Positions 21,613 through 51,075 of a stretch of 64,000 nucleotides of DNA are shown in pieces (position 1 is the first letter of the stretch; the number at the start of each line of letters is the position of its first letter). The notes beneath the pieces are model-generated. The model made no database searches and had not been told where the DNA came from. It was given only the letters and a program-made list of their open reading frames with translations. The stretch is taken from positions 20,096 through 84,095 of the forward strand of contig CALXXY010000003.1 in assembly GCA_944392815.1 (NCBI GenBank). The letters run 5' to 3'. Source of the stretch: an uncultured Alphaproteobacteria bacterium. Its GTDB lineage: Bacteria > Pseudomonadota > Alphaproteobacteria > Rs-D84. Both the position numbers and the translations under genes were made by a program.

Positions 21613-21626
21613 TAAAAACACAAAAA

Positions 21627-21657
21627 TAAAAAATCCCGCAAATGCGGGATTTTTTAT
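21627..21657. terminator. Bidirectional terminator (lipoprotein gene / gdh)
   Basis: aaaaaatcccgcaaatgcgggatttttt. Confidence 0.75.
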
Positions 21658-22910
21658 TAATACCAACCGCGCAATTTCATAGCGGCCGCCACACGTTTGA
21701 TTGAATGCATGTATGCGGCTTCGCGCATAGACACATTGTATTCTTCTTTGATTTTATAAATCGCATCAAACGCAGATTTCATCGCGGCGATTTCTTTTTG
21801 TTCCACTTCGGATTCAGGCCAATAATACCCATACCGGTTTTGCACCCATTCGAAATATGACACAGTCACACCGCCGGCGTTTGCCAAAATATCCGGAACA
21901 ACCGTCACACCGTTTTTCAGCAAAATTTCTTCGCCGTCCAGTGTTGTCGGGCCGTTGGCGCCTTCGACCACCAGTTTTGTTTTAATCAATGGCGCAGTAT
22001 CATCATTGATTGTATTTTCCATCGCACACGGCGACAACACATCAACGTCCAGCCCCCAGAATTCTTCGGCACTGATTTCTGTCGCACCTGGGAATCCCTG
22101 GATATTGCCTTTGTGTTGCGCCTTGTATTCCATTAACGCATCGATATCCAACCCGCCTTCGTTATACAGCGTCACATTCCATTCGGCAATCGCAACAATT
22201 TTTGCGCCCATATCATGCGCACATTTCGCGGTAAAACTGCCGACATTGCCAAATCCCTGAACAGCAATACGCGCACCACGAATGTCTTTGCCTTGCTTTT
22301 TCAACGCTTCGCCCATGATAATGGAAATCCCCAGGCCTGTTGCCTTGCCACGACCCAAAGATCCCGCTAATTCAACGGGTTTGCCTGTAAATGTACCAAA
22401 CGCAGATTCACCAGATAATTTGATATATTCGTCCGTCATCCACGCCATAATCTGGGCGTTGGTATTAACATCAGGGGCGGGCACATCGCGCTTTTCACCC
22501 AAAATAGGATAGATCGCATCAACATATCCACGACACAAACGTTCCAATTCACCGGCGGACAATTCTTTTGGATTAACGATAACGCCACCTTTGCCGCCGC
22601 CATACGGAATGCCGGTCACAGAACATTTAAATGTCATCCAAATGGACAGGGCAGCAACCTCGTCCCGGGTCACATTTTGATGGAATCGAATTCCACCCTT
22701 GGACGGGCCCACAGCGGTATTATGCTGGGCACGGAACCCAGTAAACACGCGCACAGAACCATCGTCCATTTTAACAGGAATCGACACTTCGACCATACGT
22801 TGCGGATATTTTAAAATTTCATAAACGTCCGCCGGCATGCCCAATTTTTCACACGCGACACGCACACGCTGCTGTGCAGCAATTAACGGATTTAAATTTT
22901 CATTTGCCAT
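21657..22910 (-). CDS. gdhA: Glutamate dehydrogenase (Glu/Leu/Phe/Val dehydrogenase family, about 417 aa)
   Basis: GPSKGGIRFH catalytic lysine motif and Rossmann GFGNVG. Confidence 0.9.
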   Translation of the reverse strand: MANENLNPLIAAQQRVRVACEKLGMPADVYEILKYPQRMVEVSIPVKMDDGSVRVFTGFRAQHNTAVGPSKGGIRFHQNVTRDEVAALSIWMTFKCSVTGIPYGGGKGGVIVNPKELSAGELERLCRGYVDAIYPILGEKRDVPAPDVNTNAQIMAWMTDEYIKLSGESAFGTFTGKPVELAGSLGRGKATGLGISIIMGEALKKQGKDIRGARIAVQGFGNVGSFTAKCAHDMGAKIVAIAEWNVTLYNEGGLDIDALMEYKAQHKGNIQGFPGATEISAEEFWGLDVDVLSPCAMENTINDDTAPLIKTKLVVEGANGPTTLDGEEILLKNGVTVVPDILANAGGVTVSYFEWVQNRYGYYWPESEVEQKEIAAMKSAFDAIYKIKEEYNVSMREAAYMHSIKRVAAAMKLRGWY

Positions 22911-24225: not shown

Positions 24226-24410
24226 TTGGTGCGCGACGCGAGGATACCCGACTCACACCAACCCAAACGTATTTCTGGTGCGGGCGAAGGGAATCCGAAC
24301 GATTAAGCACCCGACGCGCGCCGTTATTAGGCGCAAGTCGTTGGTGCGCGACGCGAGGATACCCGACTCACATCAGCCCAAATAAATCTCTGGTGCGGGC
24401 GAAGGGAATC
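24226..24410. repeat. Imperfect tandem duplication (about 115-bp period) carrying a 20-nt copy of the tRNA-Gly 3' end
   Basis: ttggtgcgcgacgcgaggatacccgactcaca (32/32 identical) ... tggtgcgggcgaagggaatc (20/20) occurs at 24226-24295 and again at 24341-24410. The second copy runs into the real tRNA. Confidence 0.8.
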
Positions 24411-24464
24411 GAACCCTCGTCTTCAGCTTGGGAAGCTGACGTGCTACCATTATACCACGCCCGC
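24391..24464 (-). tRNA. tRNA-Gly (anticodon CCC)
   Basis: Reverse complement GCGGGCGTGGTATAATGGTAGCACGTCAGCTTCCCAAGCTGAAGACGAGGGTTCGATTCCCTTCGCCCGCACCA, 74 nt with a clean cloverleaf. Confidence 0.85.
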
Positions 24465-27755: not shown

Positions 27756-27846
27756 TTCTTGTTTTTATTGAAGTCAATGGGGACATTGTTTTCGGGACCT
27801 AGAAAATCCTGTAAGTATACACCCTGGAAGAAAACAAACACTGCTA

Positions 27847-28032
27847 TTGTCGTATGATTATATTACTATCGCACAGGATGCCTGTTCAGATGGCTATATA
27901 TCCGCCGGTACAGCCACCAGTTGCCTGGCACCCAATCCGGGCGGTTCGTGCATAATGTACGCCCCGGTGGGCGTATCGTATACAGACGCCACCGGCACAT
28001 ATGAATTCGAACAACCCTGCGCCATGGAATAA
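27847..28032 (+). CDS. Small Cys/Gly/Thr-rich hypothetical protein (61 aa); homolog of the 47922-48272 product
   Basis: C-terminal TGTYEFEQPC matches SGTFVYDQDC in the second ORF, with third-codon-position differences. Weak RBS. Confidence 0.4.
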   Translation: MSYDYITIAQDACSDGYISAGTATSCLAPNPGGSCIMYAPVGVSYTDATGTYEFEQPCAME

Positions 28033-28042
28033 AATACAAACC

Positions 28043-28303
28043 GTCGCGTTCTAAAATGCCCACCGCCACCGGGTCCCGCGCAAACATAGTTTGCGTGGGT
28101 GGTTCCAGGGCGGGGGGGGGGGTGACGGTCGTCAGACCGTCGGGGGGTGGAGCACAATGACCACCCCATCGCAGAACAAAGTTCCCCTCTACGGAGGGGT
28201 GGCACGTAGTGCCGGGGTGGTATCCCGCGCCATTGGCGCGGACAACATCTACACTCTACACTCTAAACTCTATTATTCCCGCGCCGATGGCGCGGGAATA
28301 ATA
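28043..28303 (+). repeat. Repeat element copy A: 114-nt structured G-rich core plus hairpin module(s)
   Basis: About 97% identity with 48328-48441 over the core (28055-28167). Followed by several small hairpins and one 14-bp-stem hairpin (tattattcccgcgcc gatg gcgcgggaataata) that abuts the tolA stop codon. Confidence 0.85.
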
Positions 28304-29083
28304 CTACATAACCTTGCCCTGGGTGGGGTAAAACGTCAATTGGATTTTTTCCCATTTTTCAAATTCATTGGTGGGCAACATTTTAAATGGCTGACAAACA
28401 TTTATCGCACTGCGAATAGTATCCAACACATACGCAAACGCAGGATCCGTTTCTGCACGCGCGGCTGATTCAAACCACACGTCACGCACGGTACCATTCC
28501 GCCGCATCGTCAAATGTGCCACTGCACGAATATCGCCAATGTCATCGCGCGTTGTGTCAATTGTCCAACACCGCGTCATCGCCACACGCAACGCGTCAAC
28601 CACAGATACCGTCAATGTTCTGTCTAATGACACAACCTCGCGATTAACACGGATAACCGTTTTTTTCTTTTTCGGTTTTTCAACCGTTTCGTCGGATTTA
28701 ACAGTATTCACCACGGGTTCCGGTATTTCGGGCGCATCCGGCGCACTGTCCACCAAACTGGGCGCAACAATTGGTTCGGGCTCGCTATCTGCGGGCTGCG
28801 CCTCGGGCTCAGGCGCCTTGACCGGTGCGGGCGGGGTGGGGGTGGCGGCATCGCTGTCATCGTCCATTTCCGCATCAGCATTCACATTATGCAAAATTGT
28901 TTCATCGCCACTGACCCGCACAGAGCCCAAATCAATTTCCAAAATTTCAATCCTGTCCGGGGCAACCAATCCGGCGCGTTCAACCACCACGGCAAACGAC
29001 GTCAGCATTATCGCCAACAATGCCAAATGTCCGCACACAGACATCAAAAAATTTTCCGATGAAAATCTGTCGCCAAATTTCAT
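28304..29083 (-). CDS. tolA: TolA-like protein (TM anchor, Pro/Glu/Ala-rich linker, TonB/TolA-type C-terminal domain)
   Basis: Sits after tolQ-tolR. N-terminal TM helix, PEPEAQPADSEPEP linker, and basic KPKKKK segment. Confidence 0.6.
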   Translation of the reverse strand: MKFGDRFSSENFLMSVCGHLALLAIMLTSFAVVVERAGLVAPDRIEILEIDLGSVRVSGDETILHNVNADAEMDDDSDAATPTPPAPVKAPEPEAQPADSEPEPIVAPSLVDSAPDAPEIPEPVVNTVKSDETVEKPKKKKTVIRVNREVVSLDRTLTVSVVDALRVAMTRCWTIDTTRDDIGDIRAVAHLTMRRNGTVRDVWFESAARAETDPAFAYVLDTIRSAINVCQPFKMLPTNEFEKWEKIQLTFYPTQGKVM

Positions 29084-42571: not shown

Positions 42572-43057
42572 ATGGAAACCAAATTAATGCCTATATTCGC
42601 ATTGCGTGCCATGTTGCTGCAACAGGTCAGCCCACAATGTTTTGCGCGCAATCACGATTTAATCACACGCACATCTCTGGCGGCCCAGGACTATGTTCGT
42701 TCGGGTAAATTTTACGAATACGATCGTCGCACAGGCCACGCATTCAAACAATTACCGGGCTATATTGCCGTACATAAACGTTATAACATACCATATAATC
42801 CAACGTCGTCCCAATTGGGGCTGTCCACTGTTAACCCAGGCCTGGTTATGGATTTGGCATGGGCATTGAATTCAGACATGTTGGCAAACATAGTTGACCA
42901 CAACGGCAACATAATTGCCCCCGACCGCCTGTTTTCATCAGAAGTCCTGCGTGTATATCACAATTCAAACGCATATGGCGTGCCAATTGACGCATTCAAC
43001 GCGATTCAGCGTCCCCAACGCACCGCCATGTTGTCGAAATTGCAACGCACAAAATAA
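42572..43057 (+). CDS. Hypothetical protein
   Basis: ORF with a terminator immediately downstream. No family recognised. Confidence 0.35.
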   Translation: METKLMPIFALRAMLLQQVSPQCFARNHDLITRTSLAAQDYVRSGKFYEYDRRTGHAFKQLPGYIAVHKRYNIPYNPTSSQLGLSTVNPGLVMDLAWALNSDMLANIVDHNGNIIAPDRLFSSEVLRVYHNSNAYGVPIDAFNAIQRPQRTAMLSKLQRTK

Positions 43058-43087
43058 AAAAATCCGGCCCCGCCGGATTTTTTTATT
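43058..43087 (+). terminator. Rho-independent terminator
   Basis: aaaaaaatccggccccgccggatttttttatt. Confidence 0.75.
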
Positions 43088-47895: not shown

Positions 47896-47923
47896 AAAAT
47901 CCGCCACCCGGCGGATTTTTATT
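47895..47923 (+). terminator. Terminator after acpS
   Basis: aaaaaatccgccacccggcggattttta. Confidence 0.75.
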
Positions 47924-48272
47924 ATGGCTGATATCTGCAATCCTGATCATATACAAACGTGCCACTGGGTTCAATAAACGGGTCATTGGATTGCGCATAG
48001 CAGGCGGCAATGCCGTTTATGCCCGTTCTGGAATGAACCACAACAAATGGATTCCCAACAATCACAGGCACAGTCCCCGGAATTTCGAATCCGATCTCGC
48101 CATTAACCCCGGCACCCAGGCAACAACTGATTGTCGTGCCTTCGTGCCCAACCCTCACACTATATCCGGCATATCCGGACGTGTTGGGTATTGCGGCAAC
48201 AGTTTCTGTAAAGTTTCCATTTGTACCGCATTTATATATTGTGCCACACGGTTCGGGGAATGGGATCGCCAC
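47922..48272 (-). CDS. Small Cys/Gly/Thr-rich hypothetical protein (116 aa, GTG start); homolog of the 27847-28032 product
   Basis: C-terminal SGTFVYDQDCRYQP vs TGTYEFEQPCAME in the other ORF. Cys spacing is conserved. Confidence 0.4.
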   Translation of the reverse strand: MAIPFPEPCGTIYKCGTNGNFTETVAAIPNTSGYAGYSVRVGHEGTTISCCLGAGVNGEIGFEIPGTVPVIVGNPFVVVHSRTGINGIAACYAQSNDPFIEPSGTFVYDQDCRYQP

Positions 48273-48287
48273 CGCCCCATGTGATAT

Positions 48288-48706
48288 GTCGCGTTGGGGC
48301 AGTGGTATACGAACGGTGAAATATCAGAATGCCCACCGCCGACCGGGCCCCGCGCAAACATAGTTTGCGTGGGTGGTTCCAGGGCGGGGGGGGGGGTGAC
48401 GGTCGTCAGACCGTCGGGGGGTGGGGCACAATGACCACCCCGTCGCGCAAAGCGTGGCGATCCAGTAAATAAAAAAGTACTGCGGGCGAACGCCCGCAGA
48501 CATATTGCACTGGATTGCCACAGTCGTACGCCAACGTTTTCAACGTTGATCGTACTCCTTCGCAATGACAGGAGCAGAGTGGACATTATCTACACTCTAT
48601 ACTCTACACTCTTCACTCTATTATTCCCGCACCAGCGGGAATAATATAACTCTCCACTCTATTATTGTCACGCTGTGCGTGACAATAATATCACTCTGCG
48701 CGGGAA
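48288..48706 (+). repeat. Repeat element copy B: 114-nt structured core plus longer array of hairpin modules
   Basis: Core at 48328-48441. Hairpins include ctgcgggcg aa cgcccgcag, tattattcccgc acca gcgggaataata and tattattgtcacgc tgtg cgtgacaataata, with ACTCT-type short repeats between. Ends at the stop codon of the 788-aa gene. Confidence 0.85.
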
Positions 48707-48708
48707 AT

Positions 48709-51075
48709 TTATATCAATGGCGGGAAACAATCGCCCCCTGATTGTGGGCAACAATTAAATCCCATGTCGCCCATATCTGTATAAATCTCGCCTGGGCAAC
48801 AGCCATTCACATCGGGCGCACTGCCGTCTGGACACGCCGGCAAATTTGATGGAACTTCTTCCTGCCACACAACGGACGTCACCGATTGCGGCACGTATTC
48901 ATCATTGGTCGCAACTGCGCCACCGCCAACATTCGTGGTCGCACCCGCCGTCACCACAGACGGCCCAGTCGTATCCACAGCCACCATATTTTCATTACGC
49001 AACGTTTCCGTATCGTAATTCGAATCGGCAACGAACATATTTTCATTCTGTGATACGTTGTACGCGGGCTTGCTGGCCAAAATATCCTCTTCGGATTCCA
49101 CAACAACTGATTCGGGTTCGCTGACCGGCACAGGCGGTGTCACATTCACCGATTCGATAACAACATCAGCGTCCTGGACAGGTTGCGGTTCCAACACAAC
49201 CGTTTCCGGTTCGGGCTGCGCCACAGGTTCCGGTTCACTGACCGGCACAGGCACAGGTTCTGGTTCGGGCTGTGCCACAGGTTCCGGCTCGTCTACAACG
49301 GGCGCCGGCACTTCGACAACAGCGGGCTCGACCACCGGGGCGGGCGTTTCAATTTCAGGTATAAACGGACTGTCGGCCGCATCACCGCTTTCATCAGTCG
49401 CGACATCAGCCACCTGGGCTGTTGGCACCGTTGTGGTTAAATCGGGCACCTGGTCATTGGTATTACGCTGATACAGCCACAATGTAAATATCGACAACCC
49501 GATCAATAATATCAACAACAGATAATACACAAACGTCGGCTTGCGCGGGGCAGGATTTGTCGGCGCAGCGGTCCCCGTTATTGGCGACACAGGGCGGGGT
49601 GCATTCGCACCGGCGGGTGCATTTACCGCCGGTGACACCGGTCGCGCCGCGGCACTGGCCGCTGGGGCGGGTGTCGGCATCGGATTTTGCATTCCCGCAT
49701 TATTCCCGGGCGCCGCCACACTATCGTCCGCAACCGGCGGCACCGGGGCGGGACGTACAGGTTGTGCGGGTTGAACTGGCTGTACAGGTTCAGTCGTATT
49801 CGCCCCCATTAATTCAGAATCCAATTGAACATTTGAATCCACATCATTCGGCTGGGGAATATCAACCGACGTAATCGTATCCAACACAGGCGCAGATTGT
49901 GGCACAGTGGGCGCAACATCGTCGTTCGTCACAGGCGTCACATTTATTGGTGCACTATCCCCAACCGGGGCGGGCGCCGCCGCGGGTTCAGATTGCGTTG
50001 GTGGCGTAAACGACAACGGTTTTTCATCAATCACACTGTCATACAAATCATCAGTCGACTGACCAGAATTTTCCACAGGACTGGACACACCGAATTCAAT
50101 CGGTTTAAACGCGATATCTTCGTCCATTATATCTGGATTTTTGTCGAACAAAGGTTGTACTTCGTCATTTTTCATTGTTTCGTCGGCCATATTTTCCGCC
50201 TTTGGTTCTGCTGTATTAAATTCAATTTCTTTGTCATATGTTATATCAGCGACGTCATTGTCATCATCAACATCGTCCACGTCATCATCATACGAAATAT
50301 TATACGACGTCACCACAGGTGCGTCCACAGATTCCGCCGGCATAACAACATTTTTCGCCGGCGCCACATTTGCGACCATGGTCGCGTCACTGGTTGCGGG
50401 GCGGGCCAAAATCTCGCGCGCGGCGGCGGCATCTTCATCAGCCACTATCAAACGCCGTTGTGCATTGGATAAACGTTTTTTCGCGCGACGCAATTTTTCA
50501 TTTGTCGCATCAATTTGTGCATCTGTCCGTAAAATTTTCGACGCAGATTGTTTTGTCGGCTCGCGCCCAACTTTCTTTTTTTGCTGTGATAACTGTGCCC
50601 GCAAAGAACGCAATTTGACCTGTAATTCATCGATAGTTTCACGCGCACGGGTAATGGTTTCGCGCGCCCGGTCAGCATTCGATTCCGCCATAGCCAACCG
50701 TTCAGCCGCAGCGCGCCGGACTGAATCCTCGCGAAAATGGGTTAATGCAACCAGCGCATCGGACAAATCAGCCCCATTTTCATACGCACGAATTAAATCG
50801 TCGTATTCCGACAGCCCGCTGTATTCAATATCCAACTTTTGATATTTATTATTTTTCTTTGGCCGCACAGTTTCCAAATCAACCCCATAATCATTGGCCA
50901 AAATATCGTCCCATTTGCGATCACCCACGGGATTAATCACCAACAACGCGTTAGGTTTGCGATTATCAACGGTATTATCCAACACGAACACCAATTTACC
51001 GTCCGCGTCATAATACGCCCGCAGCGCATTTCCGCCGATATTATATTCCCTGAATGTTAAAACAGAATTATCCAT
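48709..51075 (-). CDS. Large Pro/Glu/Val-rich membrane protein (unknown function)
   Basis: 788 aa: N-terminal globular and coiled-coil region, acidic stretch, one TM helix (FVYYLLLILLIGLSIFTLWLY), PEPV-type repeats, and a C-terminal Cys cluster (NGCCPGEIY...FNCCPQSGGDC). Confidence 0.5.
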   Translation of the reverse strand: MDNSVLTFREYNIGGNALRAYYDADGKLVFVLDNTVDNRKPNALLVINPVGDRKWDDILANDYGVDLETVRPKKNNKYQKLDIEYSGLSEYDDLIRAYENGADLSDALVALTHFREDSVRRAAAERLAMAESNADRARETITRARETIDELQVKLRSLRAQLSQQKKKVGREPTKQSASKILRTDAQIDATNEKLRRAKKRLSNAQRRLIVADEDAAAAREILARPATSDATMVANVAPAKNVVMPAESVDAPVVTSYNISYDDDVDDVDDDNDVADITYDKEIEFNTAEPKAENMADETMKNDEVQPLFDKNPDIMDEDIAFKPIEFGVSSPVENSGQSTDDLYDSVIDEKPLSFTPPTQSEPAAAPAPVGDSAPINVTPVTNDDVAPTVPQSAPVLDTITSVDIPQPNDVDSNVQLDSELMGANTTEPVQPVQPAQPVRPAPVPPVADDSVAAPGNNAGMQNPMPTPAPAASAAARPVSPAVNAPAGANAPRPVSPITGTAAPTNPAPRKPTFVYYLLLILLIGLSIFTLWLYQRNTNDQVPDLTTTVPTAQVADVATDESGDAADSPFIPEIETPAPVVEPAVVEVPAPVVDEPEPVAQPEPEPVPVPVSEPEPVAQPEPETVVLEPQPVQDADVVIESVNVTPPVPVSEPESVVVESEEDILASKPAYNVSQNENMFVADSNYDTETLRNENMVAVDTTGPSVVTAGATTNVGGGAVATNDEYVPQSVTSVVWQEEVPSNLPACPDGSAPDVNGCCPGEIYTDMGDMGFNCCPQSGGDCFPPLI

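Follow-up and report, generated by a model that had tools for sequence, protein, structure and literature searches.

The 64-kb stretch of DNA that was analysed, referred to as the window, carries two intergenic mosaics, locus A and locus B. Each begins with a core repeat of approximately 110 nt on the plus strand, copy A at 28055..28172 and copy B at 48328..48446, and the two copies are 97% identical. Copy A is G-rich, with a G11 tract and the internal hairpins CGCAAAC/GTTTGCG and GACGGTC/GACCGTC, and is followed on the same strand by three small GC hairpins, CCCCTC-TACG-GAGGGG (28184-28199), GGCAC-GTA-GTGCC (28201-28213) and CCGCGCC-ATT-GGCGCGG (28225-28241), the last of which, the lead-in hairpin, adjoins the G-free tract described below. 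At locus B, the place of the lead-in hairpin is taken by a tail block, a structured module of 144 nt (48447..48590, plus strand) that contains the hairpin CTGCGGGC-GAAC-GCCCGCAG (48480-48499) and, at its end, the inverted heptad CAGAGTG (48575-48581). The larger part of 48447-48590 forms a highly conserved module of its own, distinct from the clamp units. The three small hairpins of copy A and the tail-block hairpin of copy B had already been listed in an earlier, sequence-only reading of this DNA, and all were found again. Further downstream lie tandem heptads and AT-clamped hairpins, and the terminal unit has the layout (GC hairpin)-GGACANNATCT-(NNACTCT)3-4-(TATTATT-stem-loop-stem-AATAATA), with an optional second unit of 41 nt, consisting of a hairpin plus heptads. 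The units are located at the downstream edge of the mosaic, and are the distal part of a larger assembly of core, small hairpins, tail block and heptad/clamp unit, in agreement with the modular organisation proposed for the region. Beyond the mosaics lie the stop codons of two minus-strand genes, one of 259 aa at locus A (TAG, 28304-28306) and one of 788 aa at locus B (48709-48711). The last hairpin had been said to abut the stop codon at both loci, which is correct for hairpin A, ending 1 nt before it, but not for hairpin B2, which ends 19 nt before it. The 259-aa gene, which had been named tolA, is TolA-like only in its location after ExbB/ExbD-type genes, and its product gave no Pfam hit.

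Direct reading and a pattern search of the 64-kb window yielded exactly three ACTCT-ATTATT-(GC palindrome)-AATAAT units, all on the plus strand. Unit A (28272-28302) has the stem CCCGCGCC/GGCGCGGG and the loop GAT, unit B1 (48620-48645) the stem CCCGC/GCGGG and the loop ACCA, and unit B2 (48661-48689) the stem GTCACGC/GCGTGAC and the loop TGT. The palindromes remain perfect one base past the clamp (TATTATT...AATAATA), so that the perfect stems of A, B1 and B2 measure 15, 12 and 14 bp, respectively. Written in full, and with no strand assigned, the AT-clamped hairpins read T-ATTATT-CCCGCGCC-GAT-GGCGCGGG-AATAAT-A for A (28271..28303), T-ATTATT-CCCGC-ACCA-GCGGG-AATAAT-A for B1 (48619..48646), and T-ATTATT-GTCACGC-TGT-GCGTGAC-AATAAT-A for B2, which is listed together with a following heptad TCACTCT (48660..48697). 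With their heptads they form the modules (NNACTCT)n-TATTATT-GC stem-loop-AATAATA at 28251-28303, 48592-48646 and 48647-48690, as the sequence-only reading had claimed. The predicted folding energy is -25.3 kcal/mol for hairpin A (z-score -9.8 versus shuffles) and -35.9 kcal/mol for B1 plus B2 (z-score -11.4 versus shuffles). Short patterns alone barely exceed chance, with 3 observed versus 0.5-0.7 expected; the composite hairpin-module pattern is not a product of chance. Across all loci seen, only three types of stem interior occur, and the loops vary freely. The earlier description of a constant clamp with a variable stem interior is thus right only in part, since the interior is not free and takes one of three discrete forms, the freedom being in the loops.

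The heptads, NNACTCT, are arranged as three copies before A (28251-28271), four before B1 (48592-48619), two between B1 and B2 on the plus strand (TAACTCT CCACTCT, 48647-48660), and a single one 3' of B2 (TCACTCT, 48691-48697). Together with their lead-ins, the two main arrays consist of GGACAACATCT followed by ACACTCT ACACTCT AAACTCT at locus A (28240..28271, plus strand), and GGACATTATCT followed by ACACTCT ATACTCT ACACTCT TCACTCT at locus B (48581..48619, plus strand). Lead-in, heptads and left clamp make up a 36-nt G-free tract at locus A (28242-28277, 0 G, 11 C) and a 43-nt G-free tract at locus B (48583-48625, 0 G, 13 C). Both tracts are predicted to be unpaired in the plus-strand RNA, the predicted ensemble of which is dominated by the hairpins, and both resemble rut sites in being C-rich, G-poor and, by prediction, unstructured. 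The pentamer ACTCT is unchanged in every heptad of the 15 distinct arrays that were tabulated, as well as in the related sequence L150, while the two spacer bases vary and are never G. At least 12 differences between related arrays were counted from the sequences, and all of them fall in the two spacer positions, for which the chance expectation is (2/7)^12, or ~3e-7. With two to four NNACTCT repeats per array, the arrays also have the format of heptad operators, i.e. at least two contiguous 7-bp repeats with a conserved core.

The arrays are also unusual in their word content. CTH/DAG words are depleted 3- to 9-fold in the genome, with CTC/GAG at 0.11 and CTA/TAG at 0.16 of expectation, and the heptad arrays are the first (48581-48619) and fourth (28240-28271) densest clusters of these words in the window, the other top clusters being mostly tRNA genes. 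That avoided words are kept at such density in the arrays argues for purifying selection. AGAGT is very rare, with two plus-strand copies in 64 kb. Avoidance of ACTCT as a restriction-type signal was considered and rejected, since lower-order AG/CT depletion explains all of it (5 observed versus 6.6 expected under a Markov model).

Related sequences (L136-L150) were reached by a protein search in which the core, translated in all six frames, served as query and matched spurious open reading frames across cores. The modules were found to recur at at least six other loci in Ca. Enterousia-type Alphaproteobacteria (order Rs-D84), the module loci including those of the TolA-like, 788-aa, LemA, CarD and 146-aa genes, so that the earlier proviso that they might be unique to the two loci of the window no longer applies. 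Modules shared by different loci are 90-100% identical. Exact-protein look-ups with the 788-aa and 259-aa genes returned contigs that end within the repeats, 15-60 nt beyond the stop codons, and this breakage of contigs inside modules is itself evidence of repetition. Further core copies, with 82-97% identity, are present in L141-L150; in the related genomes cores occur in clusters of up to three and in both orientations, and those of L144 can be inverted relative to the modules. Hairpin arrays had been said to follow every core copy, but beyond the window this rule breaks down: the cores of L141 and L142 have no modules, and L145 964-895 is a module without a core. The small-hairpin types of copy A are also found in L003, L141-L144, L147 and L150, with stems altered on both arms. 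The tail block is 94-99% identical in L003, L141-L146, L148 and L149, and tail block plus module are 94% identical to those of E. excrementavium (L003), compared to 81% for the 788-aa gene and 75% for gcrA. A covariation analysis of the tail block using consensus folds revealed no compensatory pairs on either strand, the block being too conserved.

Databases were scanned with the composite pattern ACTCT-NN-ACTCT-ATTATT-N8-30-AATAAT. In 596 Gb of reference genomes this pattern had only five matches; four were stemless, and the fifth was a true orthologue, in Ca. Enterousia excrementavium (L003). In the JGI metagenomes it gave seven matches, all stemless chance occurrences, and a 20-nt core pattern gave none. 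IMG/VR contained no core, and a loose module pattern matched at least 120 stretches, without a module-like GC-rich stem in viral contigs among the matches checked; thus there is no sign of a phage origin in these. In summary, the modules were not found in unrelated genomes, JGI metagenomes or viral contigs. Rfam returned only tRNAs at the gathering threshold for the window and six related loci, a relaxed E-value adding implausible miRNA hairpins, and a protein search with translations of the module region returned nothing. The organisation had been called undescribed, and as far as searched this is still the case, with no match in Rfam and no description of such repeats in the Enterousia literature. 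It is well supported by these comparisons that the modules represent a lineage-specific, previously undescribed family of intergenic mosaics in reduced-genome Ca. Enterousia-type gut bacteria. Several known element types were considered for the units and dropped. The short length of the units and their lack of R/L boxes argue against integron attC sites, loops of only 3-4 nt against XerC/D dif-like sites, a variable spacing (14, 17 or 19 bp) against a dimeric protein binding to ATTATT/AATAAT, and the absence of both an RT gene and a variable repeat against a CRISPR-like array or an accessory hairpin of a retron or DGR. The idea of an anti-Shine-Dalgarno mimic was dropped as well.

The number of modules was suggested to vary between strains, and this turned out to be correct. 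The 41-nt unit, composed of hairpin B1 and the next two heptads, is present in the window but absent in L145 and L003 at the 788-aa-gene locus, and at the LemA locus L147 carries this unit, with the loop GTCA, while L150 lacks it, the flanking genes being 98.3% identical. Hairpin A is identical in the orthologous locus L143 4977-4945. The GTCACGC stem is the commonest type, and is found in L003 (loop CAT), L144, L145 (twice), L146 (twice), L147 (loop ACG) and L150 (loop GTG). The loops change (TGT/CAT/ACG/GTG and ACCA/GTCA) while stems and clamps stay. In L150, the clamp of the GTCACGC-type hairpin is GTTATT/AATAAC, and the outermost clamp pair goes from A-T via A.C to G-C, one compensatory change. 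Free loops and a compensated clamp pair indicate that base pairing is what is kept. All clamped-hairpin stems are perfect Watson-Crick palindromes without G.U pairs, which makes a DNA-level hairpin or cruciform equally compatible.

Larger rearrangements were also apparent. In L145, direct copies of the unit flank a pair of genes of 146 aa and 92 aa, and this pair is absent at the same locus in the window. Even strains with 98-99% identity carry mosaics that differ by large indels. Comparison of these sequences gives good support to the view that modules are gained, lost and inverted by recombination between repeats. The high conservation could instead reflect recent spread or gene conversion, in which case the units would be selfish or neutral repeats, MITE- or REP-like, that merely look conserved. 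Pneumococcal BOX, RUP and SPRITE repeats are thought to be largely parasitic (PMC3049150), and the identity of 90-100% across loci and species, above that of coding genes, the strain-dependent presence or absence, and the clustering in both orientations fit such an origin. However, the substitutions are strongly non-random and confined to spacers and loops, with the one clamp change compensated, the arrays retain the most avoided trinucleotides, CTC and CTA, against the genome bias, and neither terminal inverted repeats nor target-site duplications were seen. Moreover, Ca. Enterousia and other Rs-D84 bacteria have genomes of <1 Mb that are ~90% coding (PMC12306168), which leaves little room for junk. 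For these reasons we consider a selfish or neutral origin rather unlikely.

The sequence-only reading had interpreted the clamped hairpins as bidirectional intrinsic (Rho-independent) terminators, serving both the mosaic strand and the convergent genes. They are indeed found where transcription units end, and are perfect, GC-rich hairpins with energies from -12 to -25 kcal/mol and with the stems (12-15 bp) and loops (3-4 nt) of a terminator stem-loop, and A and B2 lie 1 nt and 19 nt from convergent stop codons. In addition, two related loci (L144 377-320 and L148 52-1) have the same lead-in and heptads, with a canonical bidirectional terminator, AATAAAAA-stem-TTTTATT, in the slot of the clamped hairpin. 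However, the U-rich tail is missing, since no 8-nt tail, on either strand, contains more than three U. The GC stem is followed by AAUAAU on both strands, and past the full stem the plus strand continues with AUAACUCU, AUCACUCU or ACUACAUA, and the minus strand with AGAGUNN. A consensus scan called the tail-block hairpin and others, but not the clamped hairpins. The canonical bidirectional terminators of this genome (for example 21625-21658 and 43053-43087) have much in common with the units, in that they are perfectly palindromic, have 11-16 bp in the stem and 3-5 nt in the loop, combine a GC core with AT-rich flanks and occupy the same kind of position, but the clamp flanks are swapped, ATTATT-stem-AATAAT versus AATAAAAA-stem-TTTTATT. 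Because of this reversed polarity, with the U-rich flank on the 5' side and the A-rich flank on the 3' side, neither strand has a U-tract after the stem. Twelve of the 16 perfect palindromes in the window with stems of at least 10 bp are classic A-tract-stem-T-tract terminators. The tail-block hairpin, followed on the minus strand by TACTTTTTTATTT, was recognised by the consensus scan (48499-48480) as a canonical intrinsic terminator for minus-strand transcripts, and its presence there suggests that these transcripts cross the modules. Judged by their sequence, the clamped hairpins are not intrinsic terminators, and the earlier interpretation fails on the lack of a U-tract 3' of the stem on either strand; that they would nevertheless act in this way seems to us quite improbable.

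The position of the units relative to genes offers another clue. In eight of the nine arrangements, the heptads read in the sense direction of the upstream gene, and at locus B of the window the adjacent upstream gene is on the opposite strand. On the 3' side of the units there is a convergent stop codon in four cases, and in three cases a putative sigma-70-like promoter of the next gene, 40-50 nt further on; these sites, TTGCAT-N17-TAATAT in L144/L145 and TTGCTT-N17-TACAAT in L147/L150, are conserved. We tentatively favour the interpretation, plausible though a little short of probable, that the terminal unit is an RNA-level element at the edge of a transcription unit that forms 3' ends and insulates. 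The RNA made from the heptad strand would be the active molecule, and its single-stranded heptad tract of 36-43 nt, G-free and ~30% C, would provide a landing pad for a factor, either Rho, in which case the tract would have a rut-like role, or a yet-unknown reader of ACUCU. The tract is bracketed by very stable stem-loops that, having no U-tracts, would not terminate alone. These hairpins would also cap convergent minus-strand mRNAs at their 3' ends; the mRNAs would meet a canonical terminator only further on, in the tail block. A stem-loop without a U-tract is located directly 5' of the rut-like tract at locus A (CCGCGCC-ATT-GGCGCGG), and likewise in L143, L144, L147, L148 and L150. In all this, we infer the transcribed strand and the 3' ends from the sequence.

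A known parallel is the Rho-dependent 3'-end module of E. coli, which likewise combines a stable stem-loop without U residues with a C-rich, G-poor, unstructured tract at the end of a transcription unit. The difference is that here the G-free tract, 36-43 nt long and with an exact pentamer, lies between two stem-loops, whereas in E. coli the rut site lies downstream of the protective stem-loop. The E. coli order, stem-loop and then rut, holds for the lead-in hairpin and the heptads but not for the clamp hairpin. Moreover, 36-43 nt is short for a rut site, which counts against the involvement of Rho, and Rho needs no invariant pentamer, so the constraint on ACTCT points to a sequence-specific reader. 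It is conceivable, although improbable, that the heptad arrays serve solely as a sequence-specific signal, with ACUCU (in RNA) or ACTCT (in DNA) at 7-nt intervals being read by a lineage-specific factor. The arrays and the polarity-swapped, non-terminating hairpins would then constitute a new factor-dependent module, more than a passive repeat of the BIME kind, with a role in termination, in the processing of RNA 3' ends, or in the shuffling, by recombination, of gene cassettes for secreted Cys-rich proteins. The purging of the words of this signal (CTC/GAG, CTA/TAG) from the rest of the genome can be cited in its favour.

Heptads can also be read as DNA. The ribbon-helix-helix protein omega of pSM19035 binds WATCACW heptads, and tandem arrays of 7 bp are a known DNA-binding format. 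The units might therefore be DNA-level elements in which the heptads form a binding array for a sequence-specific protein and the palindrome extrudes as a cruciform, functioning as an operator, a centromere-like site or a recombination site behind the rearrangements around the 146-aa/92-aa gene cassettes. This would be in line with the invariant pentamer and free spacers, the perfect palindromes throughout, the location of three units 40-90 nt upstream of promoter-like sites, the direct copies flanking the 146-aa/92-aa pair in L145, a pair that is missing from the window locus, and the large indels in mosaics of strains that are 98-99% identical. However, G-free spacers and a G-free lead-in would be expected for a single-stranded RNA and not for a duplex site, the orientation follows the upstream gene in eight of nine cases, and ordinary homologous recombination between repeats explains the rearrangements. 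Nor could a candidate binding protein be linked to the units: a Pfam scan of the neighbouring proteins of 146 aa, 92 aa, 250 aa and 116 aa gave no match, and a ribbon-helix-helix domain was absent among the scanned proteins. We regard a function at the DNA level as unlikely.

Finally, the RNA might act in trans, as a small RNA or a 3'-UTR-derived RNA whose ACUCU motifs seed on AGAGU or on the Shine-Dalgarno-like GGAGU. The conserved motif is predicted to be single-stranded and lies just 5' of a terminal hairpin, ACUCU can pair with GGAGU via one G.U pair, and the rarity of AGAGT (two plus-strand copies per 64 kb) would make targets specific. In a variant of this idea, the minus strand would be active, with TTGTCA-N18-TAGAGT or GTGACA-N17-TATATT as promoter and AGAGU repeats in the convergent 3' UTRs. 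The promoter-like matches on the minus strand score 10/12 and 9/12, and the canonical minus-strand terminator is situated 130-190 nt further on. Against this, a sigma-70 scan of the modules gave a match rate no higher than in shuffled sequence, only hairpins of the GTCACGC type contain the -35-like hexamer, and L147 and L150 have no tail-block terminator behind the heptads. In addition, the hairpins do not have the U-tail that is typical of Hfq-dependent small RNAs, and targets were not identified. Altogether, a small RNA encoded on either strand is very unlikely.

Returning to the interpretation as a 3'-end-forming and insulating element, its architecture can be compared with that of known repeat families, and the likeness to modular extragenic palindromes drawn by the sequence-only reading is apt. 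Stabilisation of upstream mRNA and assistance in factor-dependent termination are the roles usually ascribed to the enterobacterial BIME/REP elements. Like the units described here, these are dispersed palindromes in intergenic mosaics, combined with other short motifs, clustered, in either orientation and often at gene 3' ends. However, the window hairpins have no GTAG-type tetranucleotide at their foot, their stems are perfect while those of BIMEs are imperfect, and, in this comparison by architecture, the heptad array with an invariant pentamer and the AT clamp belong to the window units only; the two are not expected to be related in sequence. We know of no RAYT gene for this lineage. The BOX element of Streptococcus pneumoniae, boxA-(boxB)n-boxC, is also composite, with an internal module that varies in copy number, as do the one or two clamp hairpins at two of our loci, and with predicted stem-loops if transcribed (PMC3049150). 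The likeness is architectural, as it concerns a different phylum and unrelated sequences, and the repeated unit is the 41-nt hairpin with two heptads and not a boxB. SPRITE (PMC3049150), a dispersed terminator-like hairpin enriched near convergent gene 3' ends, is a further likeness. BOX has terminal inverted repeats and SPRITE a long U-rich tract, whereas the window units have neither, terminal inverted repeats being judged by eye. Within the Alphaproteobacteria, RIMEs are known from Rhizobiaceae with large genomes, and to our knowledge neither heptad arrays nor hairpins with an AT clamp have been reported in them. RIMEs and Sm-repeats (Osteras 1995, cited in PMC2573895) are alphaproteobacterial intergenic mosaics of palindromes as well, of unknown function and with conserved sequence and structure; the likeness to RIMEs is architectural only.

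The compact genomes of this lineage still keep noncoding mosaics of several hundred nt, which are better conserved between species than protein genes. These mosaics break short-read assemblies and are consequently missing from most metagenome-assembled genomes, and they mark rearrangement hot spots around a multi-copy pair of genes for secreted Cys-rich proteins. If the proposed mechanism is true, the units would provide a compact, sequence-defined model of non-intrinsic termination in an uncultured lineage. Otherwise, they are still a new family of mosaic repeats in bacteria, unusual in how constraint is distributed, with a pentamer that never varies, stems that are compensated, and spacers and loops that are free. 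The variable 41-nt unit can be used as a strain-typing marker, and in the heptads at 48647-48660 there is a spacer SNP, CC/AC, among the same-species samples L136-L140.

The three units of ACTCT repeats, ATTATT, GC palindrome, and AATAAT described in the sequence-only reading are all present, as seen by pattern search and by direct reading of 27800-28500 and 48100-48900. All lie on the plus strand: unit A (28272-28302) near the stop codon of the 259-aa gene (locus A), and units B1 (48620-48645) and B2 (48661-48689) near the 788-aa gene (locus B). NNACTCT heptads precede each of them, three before A (28251-28271), four before B1 (48592-48619), and two before B2 (48647-48660), with one further heptad after B2. 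The palindromes are perfect out to the clamp TATTATT...AATAATA, with stem lengths of 15, 12, and 14 bp in A, B1, and B2, respectively. RNA folding predicted -25.3 kcal/mol (z -9.8) for A and -35.9 kcal/mol (z -11.4) for B1 and B2 together, with the hairpins dominating the ensemble. The composite heptad/clamp pattern is effectively unique: four of its five matches in 596 Gb of reference genomes are stemless chance matches, all seven matches in JGI metagenomes are stemless, and the matches checked in viral contigs all lack a GC-rich stem of the module type. The sole true reference-genome match, L003, comes from Candidatus Enterousia excrementavium, an uncultured alphaproteobacterium, and is orthologous to the 788-aa-gene locus (gene identity 81%), which places the window in a related species of this Rs-D84 lineage.

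Look-ups by flanking genes returned short-read contigs ending 15-60 nt past stop codons, within repeats. Relatives were found with a protein query made by translating the upstream core in six frames, which hit 12 spurious ORFs called over cores and led to the related loci L136-L150. The contig ends of L006, L007, and L008, which belong to the same lineage, and those of L003 and L148, all from short-read metagenomes, likewise fall inside or a few nucleotides from repeat modules. Since contigs of this lineage end at the modules, its MAGs are likely fragmented at mosaic loci and under-represent them.

A module map, based on BLAST and direct reading of the related loci, revealed that the clamped hairpins are part of a larger mosaic with four reusable modules. 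These are a G-rich core of ~110 nt (28055-28172 and 48328-48446, the window copies being 97% identical), small GC hairpins with stems that change on both arms from copy to copy, a tail block of 144 nt (48447-48590, 94-99% identical in nine other copies), and a terminal unit consisting of a GC hairpin, GGACANNATCT, three to four NNACTCT heptads, and the clamped hairpin. The modules combine freely, and clusters hold one to three cores. The order of core followed by modules, as it had been described, is correct for the window without being obligatory, since L141 and L142 have cores without heptad units, L145 has a heptad unit without a core (964-895), and in L144 cores or tail blocks are inverted relative to the heptads. 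The core itself occurs in either orientation, with further copies in L141 (6053-6165 and 6397-6503), L142 (6445-6339), L144 (5075-5251 and 6891-6800), and L147 (three copies), and has no Rfam match. Its G runs (G11 in both window copies, G6-G8 elsewhere) suggest G-quadruplex potential and flank a central hairpin whose stem varies on both arms (GACGGTC/GACCGTC, GTCGTGC/GCACGAC, GTCGCGC/GCGCGAC, and GTCGCAC/GTGCGAC); the core also contains a conserved hairpin that, on the plus strand, includes a G.T pair. Some cores carry a segment of ~60 nt (ccatgtgatatgtcgcgttggggcagtggtatacgaacggtgaaatatcag) at their 5' end (window 48265-48340, L143 5545-5475, and L145 2495-2420); direct repeats of AATGCCCACCGCC on either side give it the appearance of an insertion accompanied by a duplication. 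The mosaics also contain a second tract with a 7-nt period, TTACTCG TTGCTTG TTACTCG TGACTCG TTATTCG (L141 6557-6600 and L003 4812-4790), which may be related to the ACTCT heptads.

The sequence-only reading was right in what it observed, and its interpretation finds support in part. Its proposal that the clamped hairpins are intrinsic terminators fails by sequence, as there is no U-tract on either strand and the terminator scan did not call them. In the window, 12 of the 16 perfect palindromes with a stem of at least 10 bp are terminators of the form AAAAA-stem-TTTTT, often AATAAAAA...TTTTATT, and the flank polarity of the clamped hairpins is the opposite. Behind the same lead-in and heptads, L144 (377-320) and L148 (52-1) have a canonical terminator, AATAAAAA-stem-TTTTATT, in place of the clamped hairpin; for the clamped hairpins themselves we regard intrinsic termination as improbable. 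What the scan did call is the tail-block hairpin on the minus strand (48499-48480; CTGCGGGC-GTTC-GCCCGCAG then TACTTTTTTA), so minus-strand mRNAs of the 788-aa gene probably traverse the modules and stop there. The position of the units points to a role at transcription-unit ends: in eight of nine arrangements, the heptads are read in the sense direction of the upstream gene, and downstream lies either the stop codon of a convergent gene or a conserved, promoter-like site of the next gene (TTGCAT-N17-TAATAT in L144 and L145, TTGCTT-N17-TACAAT in L147 and L150). An sRNA with CU-rich seeds and promoter or UTR roles on the minus strand are rival readings that we consider very improbable.

Fifteen distinct heptad arrays were tabulated, and one more was read in L150. 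ACTCT is invariant in all of them, and the spacer pairs are AC, AA, AT, CC, TC, and TA, never with G. By hand count, related arrays show at least 12 differences, all at spacer positions, for which the chance is (2/7)^12, or ~3e-7. The hairpins have only three stem types, CCCGCGCC, CCCGC, and GTCACGC, the last at five loci. Their loops are free, one type having TGT, CAT, ACG, or GTG and another ACCA or GTCA. Within the clamp, only the outermost pair varies: most copies have A-T there, L147 has A.C, and L150 has G-C, so that the change is compensated. This pattern of constraint in the terminal unit is unusually clean. Loops are hypervariable on fixed stems: two of three bases differ between ACG in L147 (1795-1779) and GTG in L150 (1719-1703), where flanking genes are 98.3% identical, and the tail-block terminator loop has at least seven forms, which suggests that mutation targets the loops or that gene conversion acts among the many copies. 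The presence of a 41-nt unit of one CCCGC hairpin and two heptads varies at two independent loci; near the 788-aa gene, it is found in the window and is absent from L145 and L003, and at the LemA locus, it is found in L147 and absent from L150. Compared with E. excrementavium, the window species shows 94% identity over the tail block and module, against 81% for the 788-aa gene and 75% for gcrA. Selfish repeats homogenised by gene conversion are one reading of such copies, albeit an unlikely one.

The composition of the window argues for selection on the arrays. The AG/CT dinucleotide is extremely and strand-symmetrically depleted (observed/expected 0.40), in coding (sense strand) and intergenic DNA alike, as are CTC/GAG (0.11), CTA/TAG (0.16), and AAG/CTT (0.31); CAG/CTG is near expectation in related loci (0.86-1.27). 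Leucine codons CTA, CTC, and CTT are used 11, 11, and 24 times, versus 465 for CTG. The depletion is common to Enterousia-type loci (L003 and L141-L148, 0.36-0.56), whereas unrelated control loci do not show it (0.9-1.25). Because such words are depleted, ACTCT is rare outside the modules, with 5 copies against 6.6 expected under a Markov model. Among the clusters of avoided words in the 64 kb, the heptad arrays rank first and fourth by density, and most of the other leading ones are tRNA genes; whatever the cause of the depletion, the arrays withstand it just like tRNA genes.

On the heptad-strand RNA, a G-free tract of 36-43 nt with ~30% C, predicted to be unpaired, would be bracketed by very stable stem-loops without U-tracts. 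At Rho-dependent 3' ends of E. coli, stable stem-loops without U-tracts shield the RNA from exonucleases, and rut sites (Rho-loading tracts) adjoin (PMC6061677). Based on this resemblance, we tentatively favour the terminal unit as a putative RNA-level 3'-end-forming and insulating unit, at somewhat less than an even chance; the clamped hairpins would also cap mRNAs of convergent genes. The tract is short for this, but the chief weak point is the invariant pentamer, which implies a sequence-specific reader for which no candidate was identified. A heptad-binding array with a cruciform, acting at the DNA level, is a rival that we judge quite unlikely; that the arrays are a dedicated factor-read signal is similarly doubtful.

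Closest to the mosaic in architecture are BIME/REP clusters, the pneumococcal BOX elements, which have a variable internal module, and SPRITEs, which are dispersed terminator-like hairpins (both PMC3049150), and the alphaproteobacterial RIMEs (PMC2573895). The likeness is architectural, and we do not assign the mosaic to any of these families. The mosaic differs from all four by its tandem heptad array with an invariant pentamer, its polarity-swapped AT clamp, and its perfect stems with free loops; of the features that define REPs, a GTAG foot and a RAYT (REP-associated transposase) gene, the foot is absent from the clamped hairpins. The modules are mosaic intergenic repeats confined to an uncultured lineage whose genomes are reduced, those of Rs-D84 being <1 Mb and ~90% coding (PMC12306168).

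At several loci, the mosaics adjoin a multi-copy gene pair of ~146 aa and 92-96 aa (MKRI...GGSCIMYAP...GTYEFEQPCAME), found in L145 (1770-1040, minus strand), L141 (5302-6030), L142 (7194-6468), L143 (6300-5562), L144 (6019-6752), and L150 (2503-2055), with remnants in the window at 27847-28032 (plus strand) and 47922-48272 (minus strand). Those products that were read directly are Cys-rich with a hydrophobic, signal-peptide-like N-terminus and match no Pfam family. At locus A, all that the window retains of the pair is a 3' part of the 92-aa gene whereas L143 has both genes intact, with flanking genes 98.6% identical; at locus B, the window carries an inverted, diverged member of the family. 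In L145 (2060-1772, minus strand) and L144 (5770-6018, plus strand), a structured leader of ~230 nt comes after the conserved promoter-like TTGCAT-N17-TAATAT and ends in a terminator-like hairpin (accaccaagttttttggtggtttt) directly before the 146-aa gene; the leader resembles an attenuator or riboswitch and has no Rfam match. In L141 (6830-8150) and L142 (6020-4640, minus strand), the tail block is separated from mscL by ~1.3 kb of noncoding DNA, strongly A/C-rich on one strand, including tandem repeats of ~60-70 nt (ttatattacgtacagtttttatgagcccc...). Elsewhere in the window, a 70-nt direct repeat with 91% identity (24226-24295 and 24341-24410) takes in the 3' part of tRNA-Gly(CCC) (24391-24464, minus strand), and may be the scar of an integrating element.
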